DNA from: Candidatus Omnitrophota bacterium
GTDB lineage: Bacteria > Omnitrophota > Gorgyraeia > 2-01-FULL-45-10
DNA length: 64,000 bases
NCBI GenBank assembly: GCA_041650935.1
Contig: JBAZKH010000002.1
Span: forward strand, 64,372 to 128,371
Reading direction: 5' to 3'
This document shows, one piece after another, positions 2,650-47,648 of this stretch. A program made the position numbers and the translations under genes. The notes beneath the pieces are model-generated. The model was not told where the DNA came from. It did no database searches and saw nothing but the letters and a program-made list of their open reading frames with translations. The first letter of the stretch is position 1; each line of letters opens with the position of its first letter.

Positions 2650-2745
2650 TCCTACTTCGCTCTTAAGGCAGTCAAATAGAGTAGAGCTTCGTAGGATACC
2701 CTACGAAGCACCAGGTTATTTAAGTATTGGAGTGCGAAGTAGGGC
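2650..2745. repeat. Repeat R, copy A. About 95 bp, with terminal inverted repeats CTACTTCGC...GCGAAGTAG and an internal perfect 10-bp hairpin (GCTTCGTAGG-ATAC-CCTACGAAGC). Starts 3 nt after the tRNA-Gln CCA.
   Basis: A 38-nt core TACTTCGCTC(T/C)TAAGGCAGTCAAATAGAGTAGAGCTT is shared with 3726-3763. Both copies are bounded by the same inverted termini. Confidence 0.5.
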
Positions 2746-2848
2746 AACTATCAGTATTCGCTGACACTAGGATTTGAAAAGAGCGAGCACTGAGCGAAGC
2801 GACGACGCCCTTGCTTTTATTATATTTTTGGATATAATATAAGACCCC

Positions 2849-3262
2849 ATGATAATTTACGAAGAAATATTGCGCGAGTTCCAGAAGCAGAAGGTTAAGT
2901 ATATCCTGGTGGGCGGGATTGCGTTCAATCTATTAGGAGGAGAGCGGGCTACTCACGATATGGACGTGATTGTTGAAATGAGCGACGATAACCTGGCGAA
3001 AGCGGTCTCCATACTTAAGCGCGAAGGCTATAAAATAAAGCAACCGGTAGACCCTATGGAAATAGCGAACATAAAAACCCGTAATGATTGGATATACAAT
3101 AAGAATATGAAGGCGTTCAACTTCTACAAAAAAGATGAAATGAAGAAAGTGGATATTATTATAGATTCTCCGGTGCAGTATCAAAAAGCCGAAAAAGACA
3201 AGGTTAAGATTAAGAGCGGCATATTGAATATACCGGCAGGCCCATGGACCAGTTTGATGTAA
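2849..3262 (+). CDS. Hypothetical nucleotidyltransferase-fold protein (MNT/AbiEii-like motif)
   Basis: 137 aa. The motif LVGGIAFNLLGGERATHDMDVIV resembles the Pol-beta nucleotidyltransferase G-G/S...D-x-D signature. A possible 53-aa ORF follows on + at 3303-3464. Confidence 0.35.
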   Translation: MIIYEEILREFQKQKVKYILVGGIAFNLLGGERATHDMDVIVEMSDDNLAKAVSILKREGYKIKQPVDPMEIANIKTRNDWIYNKNMKAFNFYKKDEMKKVDIIIDSPVQYQKAEKDKVKIKSGILNIPAGPWTSLM

Positions 3263-3501
3263 AAACCCTTAAAAATATAGAAAAAATTAGCAAAGAAATA
3301 AGATGAATTTTAGATGGGAGACGGAAAAAGAAAAGTTGTTGCGTTCGATGAAGGTCTCTCCGCAGAAGAAGATGGAGTGGCTTAATGAGATGCACGATTT
3401 TTTGCTTTCTACGGCCACACCTAAAAGGAAAAAGATTTTTTGGAAATTGAGAGGAATTAAGTAAAAACTTCGCACATAACAATTTGGAATATACAGATTT
3501 T

Positions 3502-3586
3502 GCGCGGGTGGTGGAACTGGCAGACACGACAGTTTGAGGGGCTGTTGGGGCAACCCTTGCAGGTTCAAGTCCTGTCCCGCGCACCA
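3502..3586 (+). tRNA. tRNA-Leu (anticodon GAG), type II with long variable arm
   Basis: Acceptor stem GCGCGGG/CCCGCGC. Anticodon stem ACAGT/GCTGT, loop TTGAGGG (anticodon GAG). Long variable arm, T-loop TTCAAGT, discriminator A plus CCA. Confidence 0.85.
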
Positions 3587-3704
3587 TTTTAGTCAGTACG
3601 AGTATGGACTTGAAGCGAGCGAGCGCCGAGCAAAGCGAGGAAAAGCGCTATGCGCGACAGCGAGCGAGGTGAGGTTACGCAGCCGCCTATGGCGGCGTAG
3701 TAAC

Positions 3705-3725
3705 CAAGTCCTGTCCCGCGCACCA
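3705..3725 (+). repeat. Exact 21-bp direct duplicate of the tRNA-Leu 3' end (CAAGTCCTGTCCCGCGCACCA, identical to 3566-3586)
   Basis: Read directly from the sequence. The two copies bracket a 118-bp GC-rich segment (3587-3704). Confidence 0.8.
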
Positions 3726-3811
3726 TACTTCGCTCCTAAGGCAGTCAAATAGAGTAGAGCTTTGCCCTACGAAGCTCTACCCTTATCTAAGCGTCTTAAG
3801 AGCGAAGTAGG
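3726..3811. repeat. Repeat R, copy B. Starts immediately after the duplicated tRNA-Leu 3' fragment and ends 1 nt before tRNA-Glu.
   Basis: Same termini (TACTTCGCTCC...GAGCGAAGTAG) and core as 2650-2745. Internal hairpin GTAGAGCTTTGCCCTACGAAGCTCTAC. Confidence 0.5.
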
Positions 3812-3889
3812 GGCCTCATCGTCTAGCCTGGCCTAGGACATTAGGTTCTCAGCCTAAAGACTGGGGTTCAAATCCCCATGGGGCTACCA
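3812..3889 (+). tRNA. tRNA-Glu (anticodon CUC)
   Basis: Acceptor stem GGCCTCA/TGGGGCT with two G-U pairs. Anticodon stem TTAGG/CCTAA, loop TTCTCAG (anticodon CTC). T-arm TGGGGTTCAAATCCCCA. Discriminator A plus CCA. Confidence 0.75.
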
Positions 3890-3929
3890 TATATTCTGCC
3901 TCGAACCAGAGAGGCAGAGAAAATCAGCT

Positions 3930-3963
3930 GTAGGGCACCTTTAAAGGTGCCCTACGTATTTTT
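3930..3963 (+). terminator. Rho-independent terminator after the tRNA cluster: perfect palindrome GTAGGGCACCTTTAAAGGTGCCCTAC followed by GTATTTTT
   Basis: 11-bp perfect stem plus a T-run. A second hairpin, TCTGCCTC...GAGGCAGA, lies at 3895-3918. Confidence 0.6.
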
Positions 3964-4569: not shown

Positions 4570-6144
4570 TTATTTTAAGTCCTTTTGCAGTTCTGGATGC
4601 AATAGCAGGTATAGGAATTTAAGTCCGTTGTGGTTTAACGTGAGCGCGATTTTGCCGTCCATAGCGCTATAATCGATCCGTTTAACCATGAGTTTTAATG
4701 CTTTGTATTTTTCCTGAGGGAAAAGTGTCTCCCAGATAGGGGAGTTCATTATAAGCGCCTGCGAAAGTTCGTGATCCGTGATGAGTTTTTGTCCAAGCGT
4801 CATCTCTTTTACACGAGCTTCGGTTAATAAGCGGTCAAAGTCGCCATGTTTAGCAGTTAAATTTTTCAATTGGAGTTCCAGCTCTCTCTTATTACAATCC
4901 GGGTTCTTTAACGATTCTTTTACAGTCTCGATTTTTTCATTTAAGGTACGGGCATCTTTAATAAGAGTTTTCATCTCCTTATTATGAGTTTCAATCTCCT
5001 TTTGGATCTGCTCGTTTACATCGCGCAGCGCTTCTTTGCGCAGTTCCGACTCATTGGCTATTTTTATTAATGAGACCACTACTGCGTTTTCAATATCCTG
5101 CGCATTAACAGATCTTGTAGGGCATCCAGAATAACCGCGCTTATGAGCGTTTAAGCAGACATAGTAGCGGTATTTTCGGCCGTCTTTCTTACTGCTGTAA
5201 GTATGAAACATAAGGCTGTTACAGGCCTTGCAGTGCAGGGCGCTGCCAAGGAGGCCTGTATTAGGCGTATTCTTGGAATAGTCGCGCCTTACGCGGTTAC
5301 CCGCGATAATTTCCTGCGCTTTATTGAATGTTTCATCCGAGACTATGGCATCATGCGAGCCTTTGTAGAGTTCGCCGTTATATTTGACCTTGCCGATATA
5401 GAGCACATTATTTAATATGTGACTGATATTCGATGCCTTGAACCTTATGCCTCCGTGATCGCCTGATTTGGTCGGATGGCGTTTGGTAAGATAGCCTTTT
5501 TCATTCAGTATCTTCGCTACTGATAGCAGGGTTCTCTTTTTCAAGTATAGGTCGAATATCTCGCGTACCAGTTGTGCGTCTTTTTCGTTCACTACAATCC
5601 TATGATTTGCTTTATCGAGATCATAGCCTAATATCGGACGGCCTCCGAGCCATTTGCCTTTCTTACGAGCAGCTCCCATCTTGTCTTTAACACGCTCGCT
5701 GATAATCTCGCGTTCGAATTGGGCGAAGGAAAGAAGGATGTTGAGCGTAAGGCGCCCCATAGAATTATTGGTGTTAAAGGCTTGAGTTACGGATACGAAG
5801 ACGACGTTATTTTTCTCGAAGAGTTCGAGCAGTTGAACGAAATCGAGCAAGGATCGCGATAGCCTATCGACTTTATAGACCACAACGCAGTTAATCTTGC
5901 CTTCTTTAATATCGGCGATTAGCTTTCGCAAGGCAGGCCTTTCGGTATTAGCGCCCGTATAGCCTCCATCATCGTATCGATCCGGTAATAATATCCATCC
6001 TTCGCTCTTTTGGCTATTAATATAACTCTCAGAGGATTCGCGCTGGTTATCCAAAGACGTGAAGTCCCGGTCTAAGCCCTCGCTTGTGGACTTACGCGTA
6101 TAGATCGCGCAGTATAATCGTTTTGTGACAGTCTTTTCAGCCAT
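4570..6144 (-). CDS. Large serine recombinase: resolvase/invertase catalytic domain, recombinase domain and zinc-ribbon region. Truncated relative to its paralogue.
   Basis: N-terminus YCAIYTRKSTSEGLDRDFTSLDNQRE carries the catalytic Ser context. Also VVYKVDRLSRS. Cys-rich segment HCKACNSL...YYVC. 524 aa against 531 aa for the paralogue. Confidence 0.8.
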   Translation of the reverse strand: MAEKTVTKRLYCAIYTRKSTSEGLDRDFTSLDNQRESSESYINSQKSEGWILLPDRYDDGGYTGANTERPALRKLIADIKEGKINCVVVYKVDRLSRSLLDFVQLLELFEKNNVVFVSVTQAFNTNNSMGRLTLNILLSFAQFEREIISERVKDKMGAARKKGKWLGGRPILGYDLDKANHRIVVNEKDAQLVREIFDLYLKKRTLLSVAKILNEKGYLTKRHPTKSGDHGGIRFKASNISHILNNVLYIGKVKYNGELYKGSHDAIVSDETFNKAQEIIAGNRVRRDYSKNTPNTGLLGSALHCKACNSLMFHTYSSKKDGRKYRYYVCLNAHKRGYSGCPTRSVNAQDIENAVVVSLIKIANESELRKEALRDVNEQIQKEIETHNKEMKTLIKDARTLNEKIETVKESLKNPDCNKRELELQLKNLTAKHGDFDRLLTEARVKEMTLGQKLITDHELSQALIMNSPIWETLFPQEKYKALKLMVKRIDYSAMDGKIALTLNHNGLKFLYLLLHPELQKDLK

Positions 6145-6817: not shown

Positions 6818-8446
6818 ATGAGTAGATATAATGGTTGGTCGAGAGAAAAACTAATAGCCGAGATTAAGCGCCTAAAGAAGGGTAAGAAATTCGGGTTAGT
6901 TTGGGAAGATAAAATCGAAGACGTGGCGGAACTTTGCAAAACAAAACTACCTGTCTTAGTAGAAGTTGAGGATAAAGAAATCTCCAGCGATTCCCATGGC
7001 TCGGCTAATATTCTAATCGAAGGTGATAATTACCACGCCCTATCGGTTCTTAATTACACACATAAAGAAAAAATTGATTTTATCTATATCGATCCGCCGT
7101 ACAATACTGGTAATAATGACTTTATCTATAATGACAAATTTGTTGATGCCGAAGACCCGTATAGGCATAGTAAATGGATAGCTTTTATGGAAAAACGTCT
7201 AAGGTTAGCAAGGCCTCTTTTGAAAAAAGACGCAGTAATTTTTATTAGCATTGATGACAATGAGCAATCACAGTTGAAATTATTATGTGATGAGGTATTT
7301 AATGAGAAAAATTTTGTTTCCACGATAATTTGGCAGAGAGCATATAGCCCAAAAAATCAGTCCAAAAGAATTTCCGTTGATCATGAATATATCTTGGCAT
7401 ATGCAAAAAATATTGAATTTTTGGATTTCAAGTTACTCCCAAGAACTGAAAAAATGAATGCGAGATATAAGAATCCAGATAAAGATCCTCGTGGCAATTG
7501 GAAATCCGGTGATTTGGTGGCAAACGAAGAACGAAGAAACGGCCATTATATTATTACTGGACCTCATGGTAATAAATTTGATGCTCCTCCCGGGAAGCAT
7601 TGGAGTTTCGGAAAAGAAACGATGATGGGATTTCTGAAAGATAATCGACTTTATTTTGGAAAAGACGGGAAAGCATTTCCTTCTCTGAAACAATTTTTAA
7701 ACGAAGTCCAGCAGGGCAGGAAGGCTTCAACACTGTTTTTCCATGATCAAGCTGGTCATAATGATGAGGCGAAAAAAGAGCTAAAAGATTTTTTTGAACA
7801 ATCAGATGATTTATTTTCTACCCCAAAACCAACACGCTTGATAAAGCAACTTATGAGATTGCTAAATAAAGATGATGCGATTATTTTAGATTTCATGGCT
7901 GGCTCAGGTACAACAGCGCAAGCCGTTTTAGACCTCAACAAAGAAGATCGCGGTAATCGCCAATTTATTCTTTGCACTAACAACGAAAATAATATTTGTT
8001 CGAATGTTTGTCATCCGAGAATTAAAAAAGTTATAGTCGGCTATAAAGATATTAAAGGTGAAAAAGTCGAAGGTTTTGGTGGAAATCTAAAGTATTTCCG
8101 AACAGACTTTGTCGACGCCGATCCGACAGACAAAAATAAAAAGAAATTGACCAAGATGGCCACGGGAATGCTTTGCCTCAAGGAAGGCACTTTTGAGAAG
8201 ATAATAAACAAAAAAGCCTTCAAGATTTATAAAAATACTAACCATTACACCGGCATTGTTTTTGATCAAATGGCGATATCTGATTTCAAGGAAGCCAGTG
8301 CCAAGATGAAGGGTAAATTTAACGTCTATGTGTTCTCGCTTGGTGATGATTCTTTTGAGGAAGAATTTGATGACATTAAGCAGAAGGTTAAATTGTCCCC
8401 TATCCCCGAAGTCATTTTGCGGGTTTACAGGAGAATTTTCAAATAA
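6818..8446 (+). CDS. mod: Type III restriction-modification methyltransferase (Mod), N6-adenine/N4-cytosine DNA methyltransferase
   Basis: 542 aa. DPPY motif in FIYIDPPYNTGNNDF. C-terminal FxGxG-like MAGSGTT. Stop overlaps the start of the downstream res gene (TAATG). Confidence 0.8.
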   Translation: MSRYNGWSREKLIAEIKRLKKGKKFGLVWEDKIEDVAELCKTKLPVLVEVEDKEISSDSHGSANILIEGDNYHALSVLNYTHKEKIDFIYIDPPYNTGNNDFIYNDKFVDAEDPYRHSKWIAFMEKRLRLARPLLKKDAVIFISIDDNEQSQLKLLCDEVFNEKNFVSTIIWQRAYSPKNQSKRISVDHEYILAYAKNIEFLDFKLLPRTEKMNARYKNPDKDPRGNWKSGDLVANEERRNGHYIITGPHGNKFDAPPGKHWSFGKETMMGFLKDNRLYFGKDGKAFPSLKQFLNEVQQGRKASTLFFHDQAGHNDEAKKELKDFFEQSDDLFSTPKPTRLIKQLMRLLNKDDAIILDFMAGSGTTAQAVLDLNKEDRGNRQFILCTNNENNICSNVCHPRIKKVIVGYKDIKGEKVEGFGGNLKYFRTDFVDADPTDKNKKKLTKMATGMLCLKEGTFEKIINKKAFKIYKNTNHYTGIVFDQMAISDFKEASAKMKGKFNVYVFSLGDDSFEEEFDDIKQKVKLSPIPEVILRVYRRIFK

Positions 8447-10662
8447 TGCAGCTTAAAAATTATCAAATCAACGCTATTGGCGAGTTATTAAGTAAGGCCA
8501 AAAAGCTGTTTACCTATGCCGATAATAAAAAGCTAATATTCAAGGCTCCTACCGGCTCTGGTAAGACCATAATGGTGGCCGAGTTTTTGAAGCAGCTATG
8601 TGAGGATAAGGAGATTAAATTTCCTCTTGCCTTTATCTGGACGGCCCCACGGCAATTGCACGAGCAAAGCAAGAATAAGCTGGATTACTATTACGAGCCG
8701 AGCCGGGCCCTGCGTTGTTCTTTCTTTGAGGACTTGGACGATAAAAAGATCGACCAAAATGAAATTTTGTTCTTTAACTGGGAGAGTATTAACAAAGAAG
8801 ATAATATCTACATTCGTGATAACGAGCAGGATAATAATCTGTTAAATGTTGTCGCTCAGACCAAAGAAGAAGGCCGGACGATAATTCTTATTATAGATGA
8901 AAGTCACCATCATGCCACAAGCGAAATATCACAAAACTTAATTCGAGATATTGGACCCAAGCTAACGATCGAGGTATCCGCCACCCCGGTCCTAGAAAGC
9001 CCGGATGAGATTGTTTCCATCCAGTTAGAGGACGTCAAGGTTGAAGGGATGATCAAGAAAGCCGTTATCCTTAACCCAGAGTTTAATAATGTACTAAAAG
9101 ATGAAAAAATTCAGAGTCAACTAAGTAAGCAATCCGAAGAGTTGGTTATTGAGCTTGCCCTAAAAAAAAGGAAAATCCTGAAAGAGGCCTACCAAAAGGA
9201 AAAGATCGATATCAACCCTCTGGTGCTTGTGCAATTGCCGGATCGGCATACCAGTCTCGAAGACGTCATAAAAGATAAAGTTATAGCGATTCTAAAGGAT
9301 AAGCACAAGATAACAACCAAAAACGGTAAACTGGCAATCCATCTTTCCGGTGACCACAAAAATTTAGAGAACATTTCAAGAGCGGACAGCGAGACGGAAG
9401 TTTTAATATTTAAGCAGGCACTCGCTCTGGGTTGGGATTGTCCTCGGGCGCAAATATTGGTTCTATTTCGTGATTGGAAAAGCATTGTTTTTTCAATCCA
9501 GACGATCGGCAGGATTATGCGTATGCCCGATCCCGATTATGGCCACTATGCAAATGAAATTCTCAATCACGGATATATATTCACCAATCTGGACGATATA
9601 GCAATTCAAGAGGACATTGCCAGAGACTACATCACGATTCATATATCAAGACGTCGAGGCGATTATTCGCCTTTGGGTATGCCTTCCTGCCATTCAAAAA
9701 GGCATCGTGAAAAAACAAGATTATCGCTATTCTTTATTAAAGTCTTTTCGCAAGAAGCCGACGCTTATGGTCTTGCTAAAAAGATACAGAAGAAATCAAA
9801 AGGTTTGAGTGTAAATTTTATCTCAGATTTCAAGGCGGAGAGCGTTGACGCTTTGGTGGGACAGACGATTTCTGGTGATAAGGGCATCAAAATGACCGGA
9901 TTTGATCTGCAAAAGTATTTCGATTATTTCATCAGAAAAAATCTTGCTCCGTTTCATCCGGAGGATCGATCCATTGGCAGGCTAAAAGAAGCGATCTACT
10001 ATTTTTTTGACTACACGATGGGTATTAAGTATGAGGATGATCAGGAAGCTATTGTCGAAATGGTGCTCAGCGAGCACAATATACAGCATTTTATCAATGT
10101 TATAGATCAGACCAAGGAAAAGTATAGAGACCATGTATCGAAGAGGGAAAAAGAGCTTGATTATGATGAAAAATGGGATGTGCCGGAAAGCATCAGTTTT
10201 AGCTCTCAATGCGTCCTCGAGCATCAGAAGAAATCAATTATGCAGCCGTTTTATAACAATGGGCGGTCGGCTCTTGAAACGGCATTTATTAAATATCTGG
10301 AAAGCCCCAATAAGGTGGCTTGGTGGTTCAAAAATGGTGATCGGGATGCCGTATATTTTGCCGTTCCCTATGAAGAAGGTAGCGATAAGAAGCCTTTTTA
10401 CGTTGATTTTATTATTCGTATGAAAGATGGCTCTATCGGTCTTTTTGATACCAAATCAGGTCTTACAAGGCAAGTAGCAGGCCCAAAAGTAGACGGACTT
10501 AATGCCTATATTCACGAGCAGAATAAAAAAGGCAAAAATCTATTCGGTGGAATCGTTACCAATACCGATGCTCGCAATTATACCGGCCGATGGATTTATT
10601 TTAATAAGGACGCAAAAGTTTTTACGAATAGCTTTGATAACTGGGAAAATTTGGTTTTATAG
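8446..10662 (+). CDS. res: Type III restriction enzyme Res subunit (SF2 helicase plus endonuclease)
   Basis: 738 aa. Walker A APTGSGKT. DExH-like IIDESHHHA. Translationally coupled to mod. Confidence 0.75.
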   Translation: MQLKNYQINAIGELLSKAKKLFTYADNKKLIFKAPTGSGKTIMVAEFLKQLCEDKEIKFPLAFIWTAPRQLHEQSKNKLDYYYEPSRALRCSFFEDLDDKKIDQNEILFFNWESINKEDNIYIRDNEQDNNLLNVVAQTKEEGRTIILIIDESHHHATSEISQNLIRDIGPKLTIEVSATPVLESPDEIVSIQLEDVKVEGMIKKAVILNPEFNNVLKDEKIQSQLSKQSEELVIELALKKRKILKEAYQKEKIDINPLVLVQLPDRHTSLEDVIKDKVIAILKDKHKITTKNGKLAIHLSGDHKNLENISRADSETEVLIFKQALALGWDCPRAQILVLFRDWKSIVFSIQTIGRIMRMPDPDYGHYANEILNHGYIFTNLDDIAIQEDIARDYITIHISRRRGDYSPLGMPSCHSKRHREKTRLSLFFIKVFSQEADAYGLAKKIQKKSKGLSVNFISDFKAESVDALVGQTISGDKGIKMTGFDLQKYFDYFIRKNLAPFHPEDRSIGRLKEAIYYFFDYTMGIKYEDDQEAIVEMVLSEHNIQHFINVIDQTKEKYRDHVSKREKELDYDEKWDVPESISFSSQCVLEHQKKSIMQPFYNNGRSALETAFIKYLESPNKVAWWFKNGDRDAVYFAVPYEEGSDKKPFYVDFIIRMKDGSIGLFDTKSGLTRQVAGPKVDGLNAYIHEQNKKGKNLFGGIVTNTDARNYTGRWIYFNKDAKVFTNSFDNWENLVL

Positions 10663-28089: not shown

Positions 28090-29345
28090 ATATTCGGAAA
28101 GTCCGTATCGATCAAATAAACCCCGCCGCTTACAACCCCCGCCTTGATTTAAAACCCGGTGATCCCGAATATGAAAAACTCAAGAAAAGCATTAAAACTT
28201 TCGGCTATGTCGAGCCCTTGGTATGGAATAGCCGGACAGGAAATCTTGTCGGGGGACATCAGCGCCTGAAGGTTCTTACTGAACAAGGTGATAAGGAAGT
28301 AGATGTCAGTGTCGTTGACCTTGACCCCGAAAAAGAAAAAGCCTTGAATCTGGCTTTAAATAAGATTCGCGGTGATTGGGATATTGAAAAACTCGGTGAG
28401 CTTCTGGATGAGCTCGGTAAAAGCCCCGACTTTGACGTAACTTTAACAGGCTTCGACATTCCAGAAATCAGCGAAATCCTCGACCAATTGGAAGAAGCCA
28501 AGGAAGATGATTTTGATTTTGAAAGCGCATTAAAAGATGAGGAAAAAGCCACGACCAAGCCGGGCGATATCATTGGGCTTGGTGAGCACAGGATTTTATG
28601 CGGCGACGCTTCAAAGCTGGAAGATCTGGCGAAACTTCTAGGAAACGAAATAGTCGGCCTGATTCACACAGACCCGCCCTATAATGTCGATTACTACGGA
28701 GGAGCTAGGCCTCATGATAAAGCTCGTCCTAAAAACTCAAAGCAGTGGAGGAGGATTTATAACGATAACATGAGCCAAGAAGATTATGAAAAATGGCTCA
28801 AAACTATTATTACTAACGCTTCCAAGTATCTTGCTCTCGGAGCGGCTGTTTACATCTGGAACGGCAGTCGGCAATTCGGCCCCATGTATGATATGCTTAC
28901 TGAGTTAAATTTTCATATAGGGTGCGTAATTACATGGGCAAAAGAACGATTCGCCATAGGCTACGGAGATTATAACCAGCAGACCGAATTCTGCCTATAC
29001 GGCTGGAAAGAAAAGGCAGGCGCTCATAAATGGTATGGCCCCAATAACGAATCAACTTTATGGCAAATCAAAAGAGATTCTACCGCCGGATATATCCATC
29101 CCACCCAAAAACCAGTTGCTTTAGCCCACAGAGCCATTAGGAATAGCTCAAAAAGAGGAGATATTGTGCTCGATCTATTCTTAGGTTCCGGCACAACCTT
29201 GATGGCCGCGGAGTCATTAAAAAGAAGGTGCTTTGGTACGGAAATCTCCCGCGCATATTGCGATGGAATCATTAAAAGGTATGTGAAATTTGCCGGTAAA
29301 GATAAAGTTTCTCAAGAAATTTTAAAAAAATACGAACTTTCATAA
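28086..29345 (+). CDS. ParB-like nuclease domain fused to a beta-class N6/N4 DNA methyltransferase (phage-type)
   Basis: 419 aa. N-terminal ParB/Srx-like region with GGHQRL. MTase motif IV DPPY (IHTDPPYNVDYYGG) precedes motif I FLGSGTT. Paralogue at 46371-47648. Confidence 0.75.
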   Translation: MNIRKVRIDQINPAAYNPRLDLKPGDPEYEKLKKSIKTFGYVEPLVWNSRTGNLVGGHQRLKVLTEQGDKEVDVSVVDLDPEKEKALNLALNKIRGDWDIEKLGELLDELGKSPDFDVTLTGFDIPEISEILDQLEEAKEDDFDFESALKDEEKATTKPGDIIGLGEHRILCGDASKLEDLAKLLGNEIVGLIHTDPPYNVDYYGGARPHDKARPKNSKQWRRIYNDNMSQEDYEKWLKTIITNASKYLALGAAVYIWNGSRQFGPMYDMLTELNFHIGCVITWAKERFAIGYGDYNQQTEFCLYGWKEKAGAHKWYGPNNESTLWQIKRDSTAGYIHPTQKPVALAHRAIRNSSKRGDIVLDLFLGSGTTLMAAESLKRRCFGTEISRAYCDGIIKRYVKFAGKDKVSQEILKKYELS

Positions 29346-32346: not shown

Positions 32347-33942
32347 CTAATTTTGCTGGGACTTAAGGAGGTTATTCCAGATCTCTTGCTGCCTATTCCA
32401 GTCTAATTCCTGCGTTATATCGCGCAGCTTGTATTCAGGGATGCTGGACAACGCTTTGTTGTCAGACAGGAGTATCTCTTCCTGGATTCGTGGCGACATG
32501 AGGAGCATAGTCGCGATGTGGCAGATCCTGGCTGGACTTATGCCGATCCAACCAGCGATTTCTTTTAAAGTGCATCTTTTTTCATGCACGATTTGGTCTA
32601 TCTGATGAGCCAGGATCAGGTTCTGCCGTATGAGCGGTTCTTTGCTTATCGCGGCCTGCTGGCGATGATAAGGTATATGCTTTAATTCAGCCAGCTTTAG
32701 CGCGAATTGGTGGCTTTTATCGCCATCATGGAGCACTATCTCAAGAGTTCCGTTAACCGCGTCGTAATGCGCAACCTTGGCGATTGATTTAAGGACTGGT
32801 ATTTTTGCTTCCAGGGTTAGCGATTCCCAGACCTTGGCCTCAATCCGCGGATCTTTGCAGACTGTCCTTAAAAATTCCATAAACTTATTCTCAATAGCTT
32901 GAGCTGAAATGAGACGCGTAGGACAGCTCTTATAGCCACGCTTCTGGGCGTTCATACAAAGGTAGTAATGGTACTTATTAGTGCCTTTCTTGCTATATAT
33001 GTAGTACATAGTGCTATCGCAGGCCTTGCAGCGCAGGATACTGTTTAATAAGCCAGTATTCGTCACTACGCCAGCGACCTTGCGCTCACGACGGTTATTG
33101 GCCAGTATTTCTTGAGCCTTTTGGAATATATCGTCGGGTAATATGCGCTCTTGCTCGCCTTGATAAAGCTGCCCGGCATGATGAACTTTACCGATATAGA
33201 ATGGATTTTTAACTATCGATTGAATGCTCGTACTTTTAAACTTTACACCGCCGGATTTCCGGCCTTCCAGGGTAGCGTAGCTTTTTGTCATGCGACTCTT
33301 CTCATTTAGCGCTACTGCTACTGAAAGGAGAGATCGCTTCTCAAGATAAAGATCGAATATCTCTTTTACGATCTCGGCCTCTTTTGGATTTATGACAAGC
33401 TTTCGGTTTATCTTGTCGATATCATAGCCTAAAGGCGGCCTGCCACCGACCCACTTACCTCTCTTTTTGGAAGCAGCCATCTTGTCGCGTGTTCGTTCGC
33501 TTATAATTTCACGTTCGAACTGTGCAAAAGAGAGGAGTATATTTAAGGTAAGGCGCCCCATCGAGGTATTGGTGTTGAAAGCCTGTGTCACAGATACAAA
33601 TGTTACGTTGTTCTGTTCAAAGAACTCTAAGAGTTGAGTAAAATCAAGAAGCGAGCGTGATAATCGATCTACTTTATAAACCACGACACAATTAATGCCA
33701 CCTTTTTTAATGTTAGTCATGAGTTTTTGCAGGGCAGGTCGTTCGGTATTCGCTCCTGTATAGCCAGGATCATCGTAGCACTCAGACAACGTTATCCAGC
33801 CTTCCGACTTTTGGCTTTGGATATAGCTCTCTGCCGATTCGCGCTGGTTATCTAACGACGTAAATTCCTGCGCTAACCCTTCAGTAGTCGAGACGCGTGT
33901 ATATATGGCGCAATTAATCTTTTTCTTTTCTTGTTTTTCCAT
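32347..33942 (-). CDS. Large serine recombinase, intact (531 aa)
   Basis: N-terminal INCAIYTRVSTTEGLAQEFTSLDNQRE. VVYKVDRLSRS. Recombinase domain. Cys cluster CKACDSTMYYIYS...YYLC. Paralogue of 4178-6144. Confidence 0.85.
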   Translation of the reverse strand: MEKQEKKKINCAIYTRVSTTEGLAQEFTSLDNQRESAESYIQSQKSEGWITLSECYDDPGYTGANTERPALQKLMTNIKKGGINCVVVYKVDRLSRSLLDFTQLLEFFEQNNVTFVSVTQAFNTNTSMGRLTLNILLSFAQFEREIISERTRDKMAASKKRGKWVGGRPPLGYDIDKINRKLVINPKEAEIVKEIFDLYLEKRSLLSVAVALNEKSRMTKSYATLEGRKSGGVKFKSTSIQSIVKNPFYIGKVHHAGQLYQGEQERILPDDIFQKAQEILANNRRERKVAGVVTNTGLLNSILRCKACDSTMYYIYSKKGTNKYHYYLCMNAQKRGYKSCPTRLISAQAIENKFMEFLRTVCKDPRIEAKVWESLTLEAKIPVLKSIAKVAHYDAVNGTLEIVLHDGDKSHQFALKLAELKHIPYHRQQAAISKEPLIRQNLILAHQIDQIVHEKRCTLKEIAGWIGISPARICHIATMLLMSPRIQEEILLSDNKALSSIPEYKLRDITQELDWNRQQEIWNNLLKSQQN

Positions 33943-46370: not shown

Positions 46371-47648
46371 ATGAAGATTCAAAAAGTAAAAGTTTCAGAA
46401 ATCAACCCCGCTGTTTACAATCCTCGTATTACACTTCAGCCAGGCGATGCCGAGTATGAGGGTCTTAAGAAAAGTATCCTAACGTTCGGCCTGGTTGAGC
46501 CACTTGTTCTAAATAAGCGCACAGGCAACCTTGTCGGTGGTCACCAACGGTTGAACATACTTATCGCTGCTGGATTTGAAGAAGTAGAGGTAAGTGTCGT
46601 AGATCTCGATCCTACGCAGGAAAAAGCTCTTAATCTCGCCTTAAACAAAATCCAGGGCGATTGGGACAATGAAAAGCTCGCGGTCTTACTAGAGGAGCTA
46701 ACCAAGATCCCTGACTTTGACATCGGCCTCACGGGCTTTGACTTGCCGGAAATTAGTGAAATCCTGGATAAAGCCGAAGATGCCAGGGAAGATGAGTTCG
46801 ACCTCGATAAAGAGCTCGATAATTTAGGTAATGCCGTAACTCAAAAAGGCGACCTTATTCTTCTCGGCAAACATAGGCTACTGTGTGGTGATTCTTCAAA
46901 TCCAGAAGATATAAAGAGGTTAATCGGTGATGAAAAGGTTAACCTGATTTTTAGCGATCCGCCATACAATGTCAATTACTATGGTGGCAATCGACCGGTG
47001 GATAACGTTCGCCCAAAAAAATCGCGTGATTGGAATAGGATTTATAACGATAATTTGAGCCAGGCAGAATACGAAAAATGGCTTAAAACGATCCTTAAAA
47101 ACGTGACTCCATATCTTGCGCCGGGCGCGCCTTGTTATTTGTTTAATGGGTCGGCCCAATTTGGGTCTATGTACCAGATGCTTACCGAGCTGAAATTTCA
47201 TGTTTCATGCGTAATAACTTGGGCAAAGGAAAGCTTCTCCATCGGTTATGGCGATTATAACCAGCAGACCGAGTTTTGTCTCTACGCCTGGAAAGAAAAT
47301 AATGGTGCACATAATTGGTATGGCCCTACAAATGAGTCAACCCTCTGGCAGATAAAGCGAGACCATACCGCCAGCTATGATCACCCGACCCAGAAACCTG
47401 TCGCTTTGGCTCACCGCGCGATAAAGAATAGTTCCAAACGGGGGGACGTTGTCCTGGACATGTTTTTGGGTTCGGGCACCACCTTAATCGCGGCAGAGGG
47501 CTTGCATAGGGCATGTCTTGGGATCGAGATTGATCCTCATTATTGCGATGCCATAGTGCGCCGCTACATTTCTTGTATAGGTAAGAACAAGGTACCAGCG
47601 GAGCTTGTGAAAAAGTACTATAGCGAGGCGCAGCATGTCAGTAAATAA
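46371..47648 (+). CDS. ParB-like nuclease domain fused to a beta-class DNA methyltransferase (paralogue of 28086-29345)
   Basis: 425 aa. GGHQRL. IFSDPPYNVNYYGG. FLGSGTT. Collinear with the first copy. Confidence 0.75.
   Translation: MKIQKVKVSEINPAVYNPRITLQPGDAEYEGLKKSILTFGLVEPLVLNKRTGNLVGGHQRLNILIAAGFEEVEVSVVDLDPTQEKALNLALNKIQGDWDNEKLAVLLEELTKIPDFDIGLTGFDLPEISEILDKAEDAREDEFDLDKELDNLGNAVTQKGDLILLGKHRLLCGDSSNPEDIKRLIGDEKVNLIFSDPPYNVNYYGGNRPVDNVRPKKSRDWNRIYNDNLSQAEYEKWLKTILKNVTPYLAPGAPCYLFNGSAQFGSMYQMLTELKFHVSCVITWAKESFSIGYGDYNQQTEFCLYAWKENNGAHNWYGPTNESTLWQIKRDHTASYDHPTQKPVALAHRAIKNSSKRGDVVLDMFLGSGTTLIAAEGLHRACLGIEIDPHYCDAIVRRYISCIGKNKVPAELVKKYYSEAQHVSK

Follow-up and report, generated by a model that had tools for sequence, protein, structure and literature searches.

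Two copies of a small repeat at tRNA gene ends in a Candidatus Omnitrophota bacterium probably belong to a mobile DNA family with GIY-YIG nuclease-bearing relatives

We analysed a 64,000-nt stretch of DNA from a Candidatus Omnitrophota bacterium (assembly GCA_041650935.1, contig JBAZKH010000002.1, positions 64,372-128,371), hereafter the window; all window coordinates are relative to its first letter. From its start, the window carries gltX (partial), glnS, tRNA-Gln(CTG), an open reading frame (ORF) of the DUF6036 type, a 53-aa ORF, tRNA-Leu(GAG) and tRNA-Glu(CTC). ARAGORN and Rfam place the three tRNA genes on the plus strand at 2576-2649 (tRNA-Gln, Rfam tRNA score 64.1 bits, CCA encoded at 2647-2649), 3502-3586 (tRNA-Leu, CCA also encoded) and 3812-3889 (tRNA-Glu). 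A structured repeat, R, had been predicted from the sequence of this region to occur twice, each time tied to a tRNA 3' end, and our analysis bears this out: copy A occupies 2650-2744, with tRNA-Gln as its target, and copy B occupies 3726-3811, with no strand assigned to either. The original prediction placed the start of copy A 3 nt after the CCA and the end of copy B 1 nt short of tRNA-Glu. Both junctions are in fact flush: the terminal box of copy A begins at 2650, the first base after the tRNA-Gln CCA, and copy B ends at 3811 against the 5' end of tRNA-Glu at 3812, a gap of 0 nt. Copy B was correctly described as following a duplicated tRNA-Leu 3' fragment; this duplicate (3705-3725, plus strand) is an exact 21-nt copy of the gene from T-loop to CCA (3566-3586).

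Copy A is a complete element without an ORF and has the same four boxes as 70 other copies delimited in this work: outer-left TCCTACTTCGC (2650-2660), inner-left GCTTCGTAGGA (2686-2696), inner-right CCTACGAAGC (2700-2709) and outer-right GCGAAGTAGGG (2734-2744), with a left arm at 2661-2685, a 3-nt linker and a right arm at 2710-2733 between them. It is bracketed by a direct repeat of the tRNA-Gln 3' end that the original prediction had missed: the left repeat, GGGCAACCATC (2641-2651), comprises the last 9 nt of the tRNA gene plus 2 nt, and the right repeat, GGGCAACTATC (2742-2752), matches it at 10 of 11 nt. Copy B, also ORF-less, is partly decayed, with a truncated outer-left box TACTTCGC (3726-3733), an inner-left remnant GCTTTG (3759-3764), inner-right CCTACGAAGC (3766-3775) and outer-right GCGAAGTAGG (3802-3811); its arms lie at 3734-3758 and 3776-3801. 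The copies align over ~90 nt with 83% column identity. A 37-nt core, TACTTCGCTCYTAAGGCAGTCAAATAGAGTAGAGCTT, is found exactly twice in the 64 kb (2653-2689 and 3726-3762) with 0 occurrences expected from shuffled sequences, the core match extends to 42 nt at 93% identity, and the left arms are identical at 36 of 37 positions. Folding of both copies, on both strands, is far better than that of shuffled sequences (z-scores of -5.6 to -7.8). The complementary termini reported earlier exist (CTACTTCGC, 2652-2660, and GCGAAGTAG, 2734-2742, in copy A; TACTTCGC and GCGAAGTA in copy B). Each copy also contains a strong internal hairpin, as had been claimed, although the pairings are not common to both: copy A pairs GCTTCGTAGG with CCTACGAAGC, whereas copy B, which has lost most of its left inner box (a 7-nt gap in the alignment), pairs GTAGAGCTT with AAGCTCTAC instead. 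One suggested role for R, that of a terminator, fails because there is no run of T after the hairpin in either case; the sequence next to copy A is GGGCAACTATC, and copy B runs directly into tRNA-Glu.

The GlnS protein of the window is identical to that of a Candidatus Omnitrophota metagenome-assembled genome (MAG), and the next-nearest relatives are ~83% identical. We retrieved the orthologous loci of relatives via their GlnS proteins (loci are denoted here by L and a number). In L002, both sites are empty: there is no R, no tRNA-Leu duplicate, and no copy of S, a second dispersed repeat family of ~120 nt that in the window lies directly after tRNA-Leu (3587-3704, no strand assigned) and also occupies the orthologous site in L004 and L005. 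The tRNA arrangement of L002 is otherwise identical, with the DUF6036 gene 25 nt after tRNA-Gln and 50 nt between tRNA-Leu and tRNA-Glu. In L005, no element follows tRNA-Gln, and tRNA-Leu is followed by S, the 21-nt duplicate and an R-like element (8226-8337) orthologous to copy B. The outer and inner boxes of this element (CTGCTTCGC/GCGAAGCAG and GCTTCGCAGGA/TCCTGCGAAGC) carry compensatory changes, A-to-G and T-to-C relative to the window, mirrored in all four boxes. At the orthologous sites of L002 and L005, both without copy A, the tRNA-Gln end is present only once. L004 contains S and the tRNA-Leu duplicate, but has another repeat, Q, rather than R at its tRNA ends. Thus, copy B, common to L005, is the old insertion, and copy A, absent there, the later one, and the tRNA ends of this locus are recurrent landing sites for several small repeat families. 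A plausible history is that copy B entered after tRNA-Leu in an ancestor common to a relative, that S later inserted at the same tRNA-Leu end, duplicating its last 21 nt and displacing copy B, and that copy A entered after tRNA-Gln in the lineage of the window, with duplication of 11 nt.

A search for the core beyond the window had been proposed, with the existence of only two copies, free of compensatory substitutions, as a refuting outcome. An exact 19-mer of the R core has no match in genome or metagenome collections, neither of which holds the source genome, and the exact core is thus known only from its two copies. The family is not so confined: a pattern built from the parts common to the window and L005 (GCTTCGNAGG, gap, CCTNCGAAGC, gap, GCGAAG) recovers at least 120 stretches, mostly from Candidatus Omnitrophota MAGs and also from MAGs labelled Planctomycetia, Elusimicrobia and others. 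Copies per genome are many in relatives, with 13 contigs from the single assembly JAQURV01 among the matches listed. Matches in Azospirillum and Caulobacteraceae were set aside; they are without outer boxes and seem to belong to an unrelated GC-rich repeat. Among the matches listed we delimited 71 copies by their four boxes, of which 69 were used for analysis of flanking repeats and 67 distinct copies for covariation.

Every delimited copy contains the boxes TTCTNCTTCGC, GCTTCGN'AGGA, TCCTNCGAAGC and GCGAAGN'AGAA. The arm between the boxes of each half is variable, ~20 nt long and itself a small hairpin. The left unit reads TTCTNC-TTC-GC[arm]GC-TTC-GN'AGGA, and the right unit is its reverse complement, ending GCGAAGN'AGAA. 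ORF-less copies are 85-123 bp long and non-coding, and they terminate in short inverted repeats (TTCTNCTTCGC and GCGAAGN'AGAA). Within the left unit, the variable position N is Watson-Crick paired from outer to inner box in 62 of 67 copies; within the right unit this applies to 61 of 67, and all four pair types are used. Pairing between the two outer boxes (16/67) or the two inner boxes (12/67) is close to chance. In the box alignment, the covariation score for two hairpins is 0.273, as compared to 0.106 +/- 0.009 in shuffles (0 of 500 as high), and that for a terminal stem plus inner stem is 0.079, as compared to 0.074 (111 of 500 as high). Since N covaries between each outer box and the neighbouring inner box, the element is an inverted pair of adjacent hairpins. 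The long-range stem of terminal inverted repeats in the original prediction is without covariation support; the window copies can form it because N is, by coincidence, identical in their two halves. As a conserved fold we rejected this cloverleaf-like stem, although it is the thermodynamic optimum, being the minimum-energy fold in 19 of 21 copies.

We found no support for R as a strand-specific small RNA or a tRNA-processing structure, two further roles raised for it earlier. In the 21 tRNA-oriented copies, the mean difference in folding energy between sense and antisense strands is -0.8 kcal/mol (p = 0.59), and this lack of asymmetry argues against a strand-specific RNA. G-U pairs account for 54 of 777 pairs in the sense strand and 43 of 757 in the antisense strand, with no excess, and the N pairs are almost all Watson-Crick. 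A search with Rfam 15 at permissive thresholds, covering the window region, L004 and eight element loci, returned only tRNAs. The folding, G-U and Rfam results fit a DNA-level element better than a strand-specific RNA.

A tRNA 3' end lies within 1 nt of the element in 21 of the 71 copies, against 0.06 expected from random placement in the same loci, and these 21 involve 18 tRNA species. Fifteen of these tRNA genes encode CCA, and the element starts after its A; the other six do not, and there the element starts after the discriminator base. A flush position at no fewer than 18 tRNA species implies that the family recognises a feature common to all tRNA genes. Insertion tracks the encoded tRNA end with or without CCA, unlike a fixed distance from the T-loop, and targeting may therefore be structural or RNA-defined, an argument that is weakened by the mixed CCA encoding within some genomes. 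Some copies at tRNA 5' ends (L032 and L100) are flanked by a copy of the first 9-12 nt of the tRNA, and several copies without a called tRNA adjoin tRNA 3' fragments. The commonest flanking triplet is CCA, and a purine precedes the element at 83 of 92 ends.

Direct repeats of 5 nt or more flank 31 of 69 copies (6.3% of mismatched-flank controls), and those of 9 nt or more flank 11 of 69 (1% of controls). At sites without a called tRNA the repeats are 3-10 nt long (for example, CACCTCTCC in L045); at tRNA ends they reach 21-25 nt, as in L051. The long repeats always end on the last base of the tRNA and often begin at the T-loop or T-stem junction. Tandem arrays in which copies are parted by tRNA 3' fragments occur in L006, L020, L080 and L105, and L042 also has a tandem array of elements. 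We conclude that the R family is multi-copy and insertion-polymorphic, with a strong, nucleotide-precise link to tRNA gene ends.

Some relatives of R carry a gene. One element, in L059, has a 280-nt insert between its inner boxes that holds an 80-aa ORF, and is flanked by a 15-nt direct repeat resembling a tRNA 3' end. A second ORF, 57% identical to the first, is found in L048, immediately downstream of an element adjoining tRNA-Glu; behind this ORF comes a partial hairpin unit, the arm of which exactly matches the left arm of that element. There are 17 close homologues, all of 80-90 aa. On every contig fetched for three homologues, the ORF is accompanied by boxes and is downstream of a tRNA where the contig is long enough. 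L133-L136 contain tRNA-Asp, a left hairpin unit, the ORF, a box complementary to the outer-left box, a right unit and a 15-nt copy of the tRNA-Asp end; L130-L132 contain tRNA-Asp, an ORF-less element, CCA, an ORF-bearing element and a 15-nt fragment; L126-L129 contain tRNA-Tyr (on contigs long enough), an element and the ORF. L116, an ORF-less copy from the same assembly as the ORF-bearing L059, can be aligned with it, and with L133, over its full length, and differs only by one gap, which takes out the ORF. By this alignment, the ORF-less copies, R included, are internal-deletion derivatives, and R is best read, on sequence comparison, as a miniature, non-autonomous derivative of an ORF-bearing tRNA-end element. 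Just after the ORF, or in the linkers of many ORF-less copies, is a fifth box that is the exact complement of the outer-left box (308-319 and 611-622 in L133, 1424-1435 and 1728-1739 in L059, and the linkers of L048, L062, L063, L116 and L123). In L133 the fifth box shows a compensatory change (CTTTGCC and GGCAAAG); its pairing would compete with the left hairpin. No mobile-element family recurred when we clustered the ORFs located up to 2.5 kb from the inner hairpins at 120 loci, with a minimum length of 90 aa that excludes the 80-aa ORF described here.

The ORF matches the Pfam family GIY-YIG (PF01541) at 9.5e-14, and the catalytic residues Y5, Y17, R27, H31 and E63 are invariant among the nucleases of the ORF-bearing relatives. 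A profile search of solved structures returned SLX1 first (2.9e-5), followed by the Bacillus UPF0213 protein 1ZG2 (7.8e-5); I-TevI was not significant (E = 0.66), and TIGR01453 was far below its cut-off. SLX1 is a structure-specific nuclease that in eukaryotes cuts branched DNA. The nuclease of the element has no appended DNA-binding domain, being 80 aa in total, and its family comprises 3,370 clusters at E <= 1e-3 and 476 at E <= 1e-10. In a 2006 survey of the superfamily, SLX1-like proteins that stand alone in prokaryotes represent the domain in its minimal form and are treated as vertically inherited, presumed repair enzymes (PMC1564403). As a side observation, L131 contains a LAGLIDADG endonuclease ORF (378-1361) between tRNA-Val and the tRNA-Asp that precedes the GIY-YIG element; this one tRNA cluster therefore has two kinds of selfish nuclease gene.

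We also analysed a distant set of eighty metagenome loci encoding relatives of the nuclease at 42-70% identity, 70 of which have enough upstream sequence. A co-oriented tRNA ends less than 400 nt upstream of the ORF in 40 of these 70, mostly at 50-140 nt, and none of the 80 loci has a called tRNA on the opposite strand. Boxes are found next to the ORF in 48 of 80. In a GC-rich clade, a compact five-box version (TCCTGCTTCGC, hairpin, GCTTCGCAGGA, linker, GCGAAGCAGGA, CCCTCCGAAGC, CTTG, GCGAAGGAGGG) begins at position +1 after the tRNA in 16 of 22 cases. It lies between tRNA and ORF and ends ~10 nt before the start codon, with a GGAGG inside the second hairpin that is likely a ribosome-binding site held in that structure. 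An exact duplicate of the tRNA 3' end was detected downstream of the nuclease gene in only 2 of 40 loci, both among the closest relatives; hence, the downstream duplicate is either confined to the Omnitrophota-like clade or decays quickly.

Several known systems resemble R in part. R shares several traits with bacterial miniature inverted-repeat transposable elements (MITEs; for example, Correia elements, RPEs and Nezha): it is short and non-coding, it has inverted repeats at its termini and duplications at its flanks, and its family is multi-copy in related genomes. Like MITEs, it appears to derive by internal deletion from a longer, gene-bearing relative. Its longer relatives have the same boxes and differ by one internal gap, yet they encode an 80-aa GIY-YIG nuclease, for which a transposase role would be novel, rather than a DDE, HUH or serine transposase. 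R further differs from MITEs in its duplications of 0-25 nt, its target at an exact tRNA gene boundary and its fold of two adjacent hairpins supported by covariation. By sequence, the nuclease is a member of the stand-alone SLX1-like proteins (UPF0213; PDB 1ZG2), but in contrast to the survey's view of these as repair enzymes, the clade described here sits behind tRNA genes in repeat-bounded, polymorphic units. Seg and I-TevI enzymes are 200-250 aa long with DNA-binding domains; they spread by allelic homing and are not known to have hairpin ends or to leave miniature derivatives. They belong to the homing endonuclease/UvrC lineage (PMC1564403), and phage T4 segB, which encodes a free-standing GIY-YIG homing endonuclease, lies in a tRNA gene cluster (PMC13096335; T4 review, PMC2988022). 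The ORF-bearing relatives of R are like T4 segB in presenting a putatively selfish GIY-YIG gene among or beside tRNA genes, and unlike these enzymes in having a bare 80-aa domain of the SLX1/UPF0213 lineage and copies at many non-allelic sites.

Repetitive extragenic palindromic (REP) sequences, and the REPINs moved by REP-associated tyrosine transposases (RAYTs), share with R an inverted pair of hairpins (seen here as half-unit covariation), many copies per genome and a short conserved foot motif, but not the flanking duplications, the targeting of tRNA ends or the associated enzyme. To our knowledge, organellar double-hairpin elements have no tRNA-end rule and no demonstrated nuclease partner. 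Such elements, described in chytrid mitochondria, and the repetitive hairpin-forming elements of sponge mitochondria (PMC2800124) resemble R by architecture only, being small, mobile and composed of two adjacent hairpins in compact genomes; R, however, is bacterial. None of the MITE, homing endonuclease, REPIN/RAYT and organellar double-hairpin systems matches on enzyme lineage, target rule and duplication pattern together. Integron attC sites were considered and rejected, as the loci have no RYYYAAC or GTTRRRY core sites, no cassette ORFs and no intI. We found no description of a tRNA-end element with a tiny GIY-YIG gene in the literature, including a recent survey of Omnitrophota genomes; coverage was incomplete, and an earlier description may exist.

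We consider it probable that the two R copies, which lack an ORF, are non-autonomous members of a mobile DNA family whose small elements abound in Candidatus Omnitrophota and allied MAGs, insert at tRNA gene ends and have GIY-YIG-bearing relatives. Of the roles first offered for R, that of a MITE-like element preferring tRNA ends is thus strongly supported, by the many copies in relatives' genomes, the 18 tRNA species, the flanking repeats, the empty sites and the ORF-bearing relatives. New copies would land at a tRNA gene boundary, mostly at the first base after the encoded 3' end and sometimes at the 5' end. The target stretch would often be duplicated (3-25 nt), so that at tRNA sites the element is bordered by the intact tRNA and, at its opposite end, by a fragment of the tRNA 3' end. 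Full-length relatives carry the 80-aa gene of the SLX1/UPF0213 branch between the hairpin units or just after them, co-oriented with the tRNA. The nuclease may nick the hairpins of the element and the tRNA gene boundary, mobilising full-length and miniature copies in trans, and a place behind a tRNA may supply read-through transcription to a promoter-less gene as well as a harmless landing site. The window copies, without a nuclease gene, are probably inert relics with no host function. We further suggest, tentatively, that the family may represent an unrecognised class of prokaryotic mobile DNA, in which a bare 80-aa SLX1-like GIY-YIG nuclease, without transposase or integrase, moves double-hairpin-ended units and their miniatures by structure-directed nicking at exact tRNA gene boundaries. 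Folding of the tRNA gene, or a tRNA:DNA hybrid, might then mark the boundary and account for insertion at the encoded 3' end with or without CCA, and tRNA read-through and tRNA 3' processing might yield the mRNA of the element.

A number of observations weigh against a nuclease-driven mobile family. Duplication length varies from 0 to 25 nt, with none in 15 of 69 copies, and classical transposases, including those that move MITEs, give a fixed length. Of the ~120 element loci recovered by the DNA scan, only two carry the ORF, and no nuclease gene of this family is encoded in the 64-kb window. In the source organism, two copies of R are seen in 64 kb, and multi-copy status rests on relatives. 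Three of the four boxes were fixed by the search pattern, so the invariance of the boxes is partly imposed and says little. The tRNA-Asp fragment in L130 differs by 1 nt from the resident tRNA, which simple target duplication does not predict; a fragment that had travelled with the element would fit. The boxes and GGAGG preceding the distant ORFs suggest a role as an RNA leader, outside a model of DNA mobility. Lastly, we know of no SLX1-type GIY-YIG protein that acts as a transposase, and the nuclease ORF could be cargo.

Among other explanations, we regard as unlikely that R is a functional part of tRNA transcripts, either a 3' trailer or spacer for processing or stability or a relic of an mRNA leader, kept in position by selection at the RNA level. 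Both window copies are within a co-oriented run of tRNAs and would be co-transcribed, copy B is bounded exactly by a CCA end and the 5' end of tRNA-Glu, all 40 ORFs near a tRNA are co-oriented with it, and the compact version begins at +1 after the tRNA in 16 of 22 cases with GGAGG ~10 nt before the ATG in its second hairpin. However, many of the 71 copies have no called tRNA at either end, some of them with short flanking repeats; the two strands are alike in stability and G-U content, N positions pair almost exclusively by Watson-Crick rules and Rfam gives no match; and the sites are empty in L002 despite its identical tRNA arrangement, while copy B is missing an inner box. The breadth of targets makes it more doubtful still that R copies are attL/attR-bounded remnants of tRNA-end integrative elements, mobilised by a tyrosine or serine integrase in trans: 18 different tRNA species are involved, besides sites without a called tRNA where repeats are only 3-10 nt, and the recurring internal gene is the GIY-YIG nuclease, with no recombinase recurring near copies. 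Direct repeats of the tRNA 3' end of 11-25 nt do bracket elements as at attL and attR, and the mismatched fragment of L130 is what an element-borne att copy would look like. A large serine recombinase gene is also encoded 700 bp downstream of tRNA-Glu, although it is part of a distinct low-GC island that lies beyond that tRNA.

Transposition by REP- and IS200-type single-strand mechanisms is not known to leave flanking direct repeats, whereas such repeats are frequent here. This, together with a specificity for tRNA ends that is foreign to REP sequences, the GIY-YIG nuclease as associated gene and the lack of a family resembling Y1 transposases among the clustered ORFs of at least 90 aa, makes it very unlikely that R is a REPIN-type inverted pair of REP hairpins moved by a RAYT (Y1 HUH) transposase, despite its inverted hairpin dimer, conserved foot containing GNAG, high copy number and intergenic location. 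It is scarcely credible that the two copies arose by local duplication of a tRNA spacer, as the original prediction had allowed. The exact core is found only twice in the window and has no match in the genome and metagenome collections, and the left arms are nearly identical (36/37), but R and S are not arranged in the same order at the two sites, L005 has copy B and not copy A, and more than 100 related copies exist in other genomes. A tandem spacer duplication is contradicted by the sharing of copy B alone with L005 and by the family matches. The mobile, tRNA-end-inserting family with nuclease-bearing relatives hence remains our preferred explanation of R.

Other repeats share the tRNA ends. 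In addition to the S element after tRNA-Leu, the window has a partial S relic (GGATTTGAAAAGAGCGAGCACTGAGCGAAGCGACGA; 2755-2810, no strand assigned) that aligns at ~80% identity with 3606-3641. S copies are also located in L004 (8720-8836) and L005 (8086-8205), and at other tRNA-associated sites in L051 (2073-2166 and 3701-3778), L020 (4410-4518 and 4597-4673) and L022. The start of S directly adjoins a tRNA 3' end, of which a ~20-nt copy, starting in the T-loop, lies beyond the far end of S; in arrays, S interleaves with the R-type element. Its hairpins covary (GCGC-TAT-GCGC and GGGC-TAT-GCCC; GGTTAC/GTAACC and GGTCC/GGACC), and S has no Rfam match and no associated gene was found. Q is a third, unrelated structured repeat of ~95 nt, located in L004, a relative without R, after tRNA-Gln (7811-7905), after the tRNA-Leu duplicate (8858-8950) and after tRNA-Glu (9127-9220). 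The closing stem of Q covaries between copies, two of which are followed by the same AAGGAAAACCTTTT...AAAAGGTTTTCCTT hairpin, and Q was not found in any other fetched locus. L126 (2012-2130) has a further small insert, of 74 nt and resembling none of R, S and Q, between tRNA-Thr and a ~40-nt duplicate of the 3' part of this tRNA.

The DUF6036/nucleotidyltransferase ORF of the window (2849-3262) is probably truncated by a frameshift or deletion near 3240, since it encodes 137 aa as compared to 163 aa in L002 and L004. Downstream of it is an intact, conserved partner ORF of 52-53 aa (3303-3464), and the two look like a module of the toxin-antitoxin type. Two strong hairpins (3895-3960, z-score -5.6) are positioned directly 3' of tRNA-Glu, and the second (GTAGGGCACC...GGTGCCCTAC, then TATTTTT) looks like the terminator of the tRNA operon. 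Also directly 3' of tRNA-Glu is a low-GC island of ~52 kb (~4.0-56 kb; GC content ~40% versus ~52% outside), at the start of which is the large serine recombinase gene (4570-6144, minus strand). The island includes a likely type III restriction-modification pair (6818-8446 and 8446-10662) and diverged internal duplications (5693-5992 and 33494-33793, 71%; 28872-29171 and 47157-47456, 74%). No duplicate of the tRNA-Glu 3' end marking the far end of the island was detected within the 64-kb window.

Genes for tRNAs are well-known landing sites of large integrative elements, which use site-specific recombinases that each recognise one tRNA sequence. The R family is instead flush against at least 18 tRNA species, and the sole gene that it carries encodes a minimal nuclease. 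If this nuclease drives mobility, the family would represent a new way to move DNA, and a function would be assigned to a large family of small bacterial proteins (the 3,370 clusters described above). If the family is indeed a new class of mobile DNA, part of the stand-alone prokaryotic SLX1-like family would shift from presumed repair enzymes to selfish elements. In Omnitrophota, the tRNA 3'-end duplicates and hairpin arrays associated with R, S and Q can mislead tRNA annotation, the definition of genomic-island boundaries and the assembly of MAGs. Inert as they probably are, the two copies in the window reveal a tRNA-end element of wide distribution and suggest that a minimal nuclease family may act selfishly.

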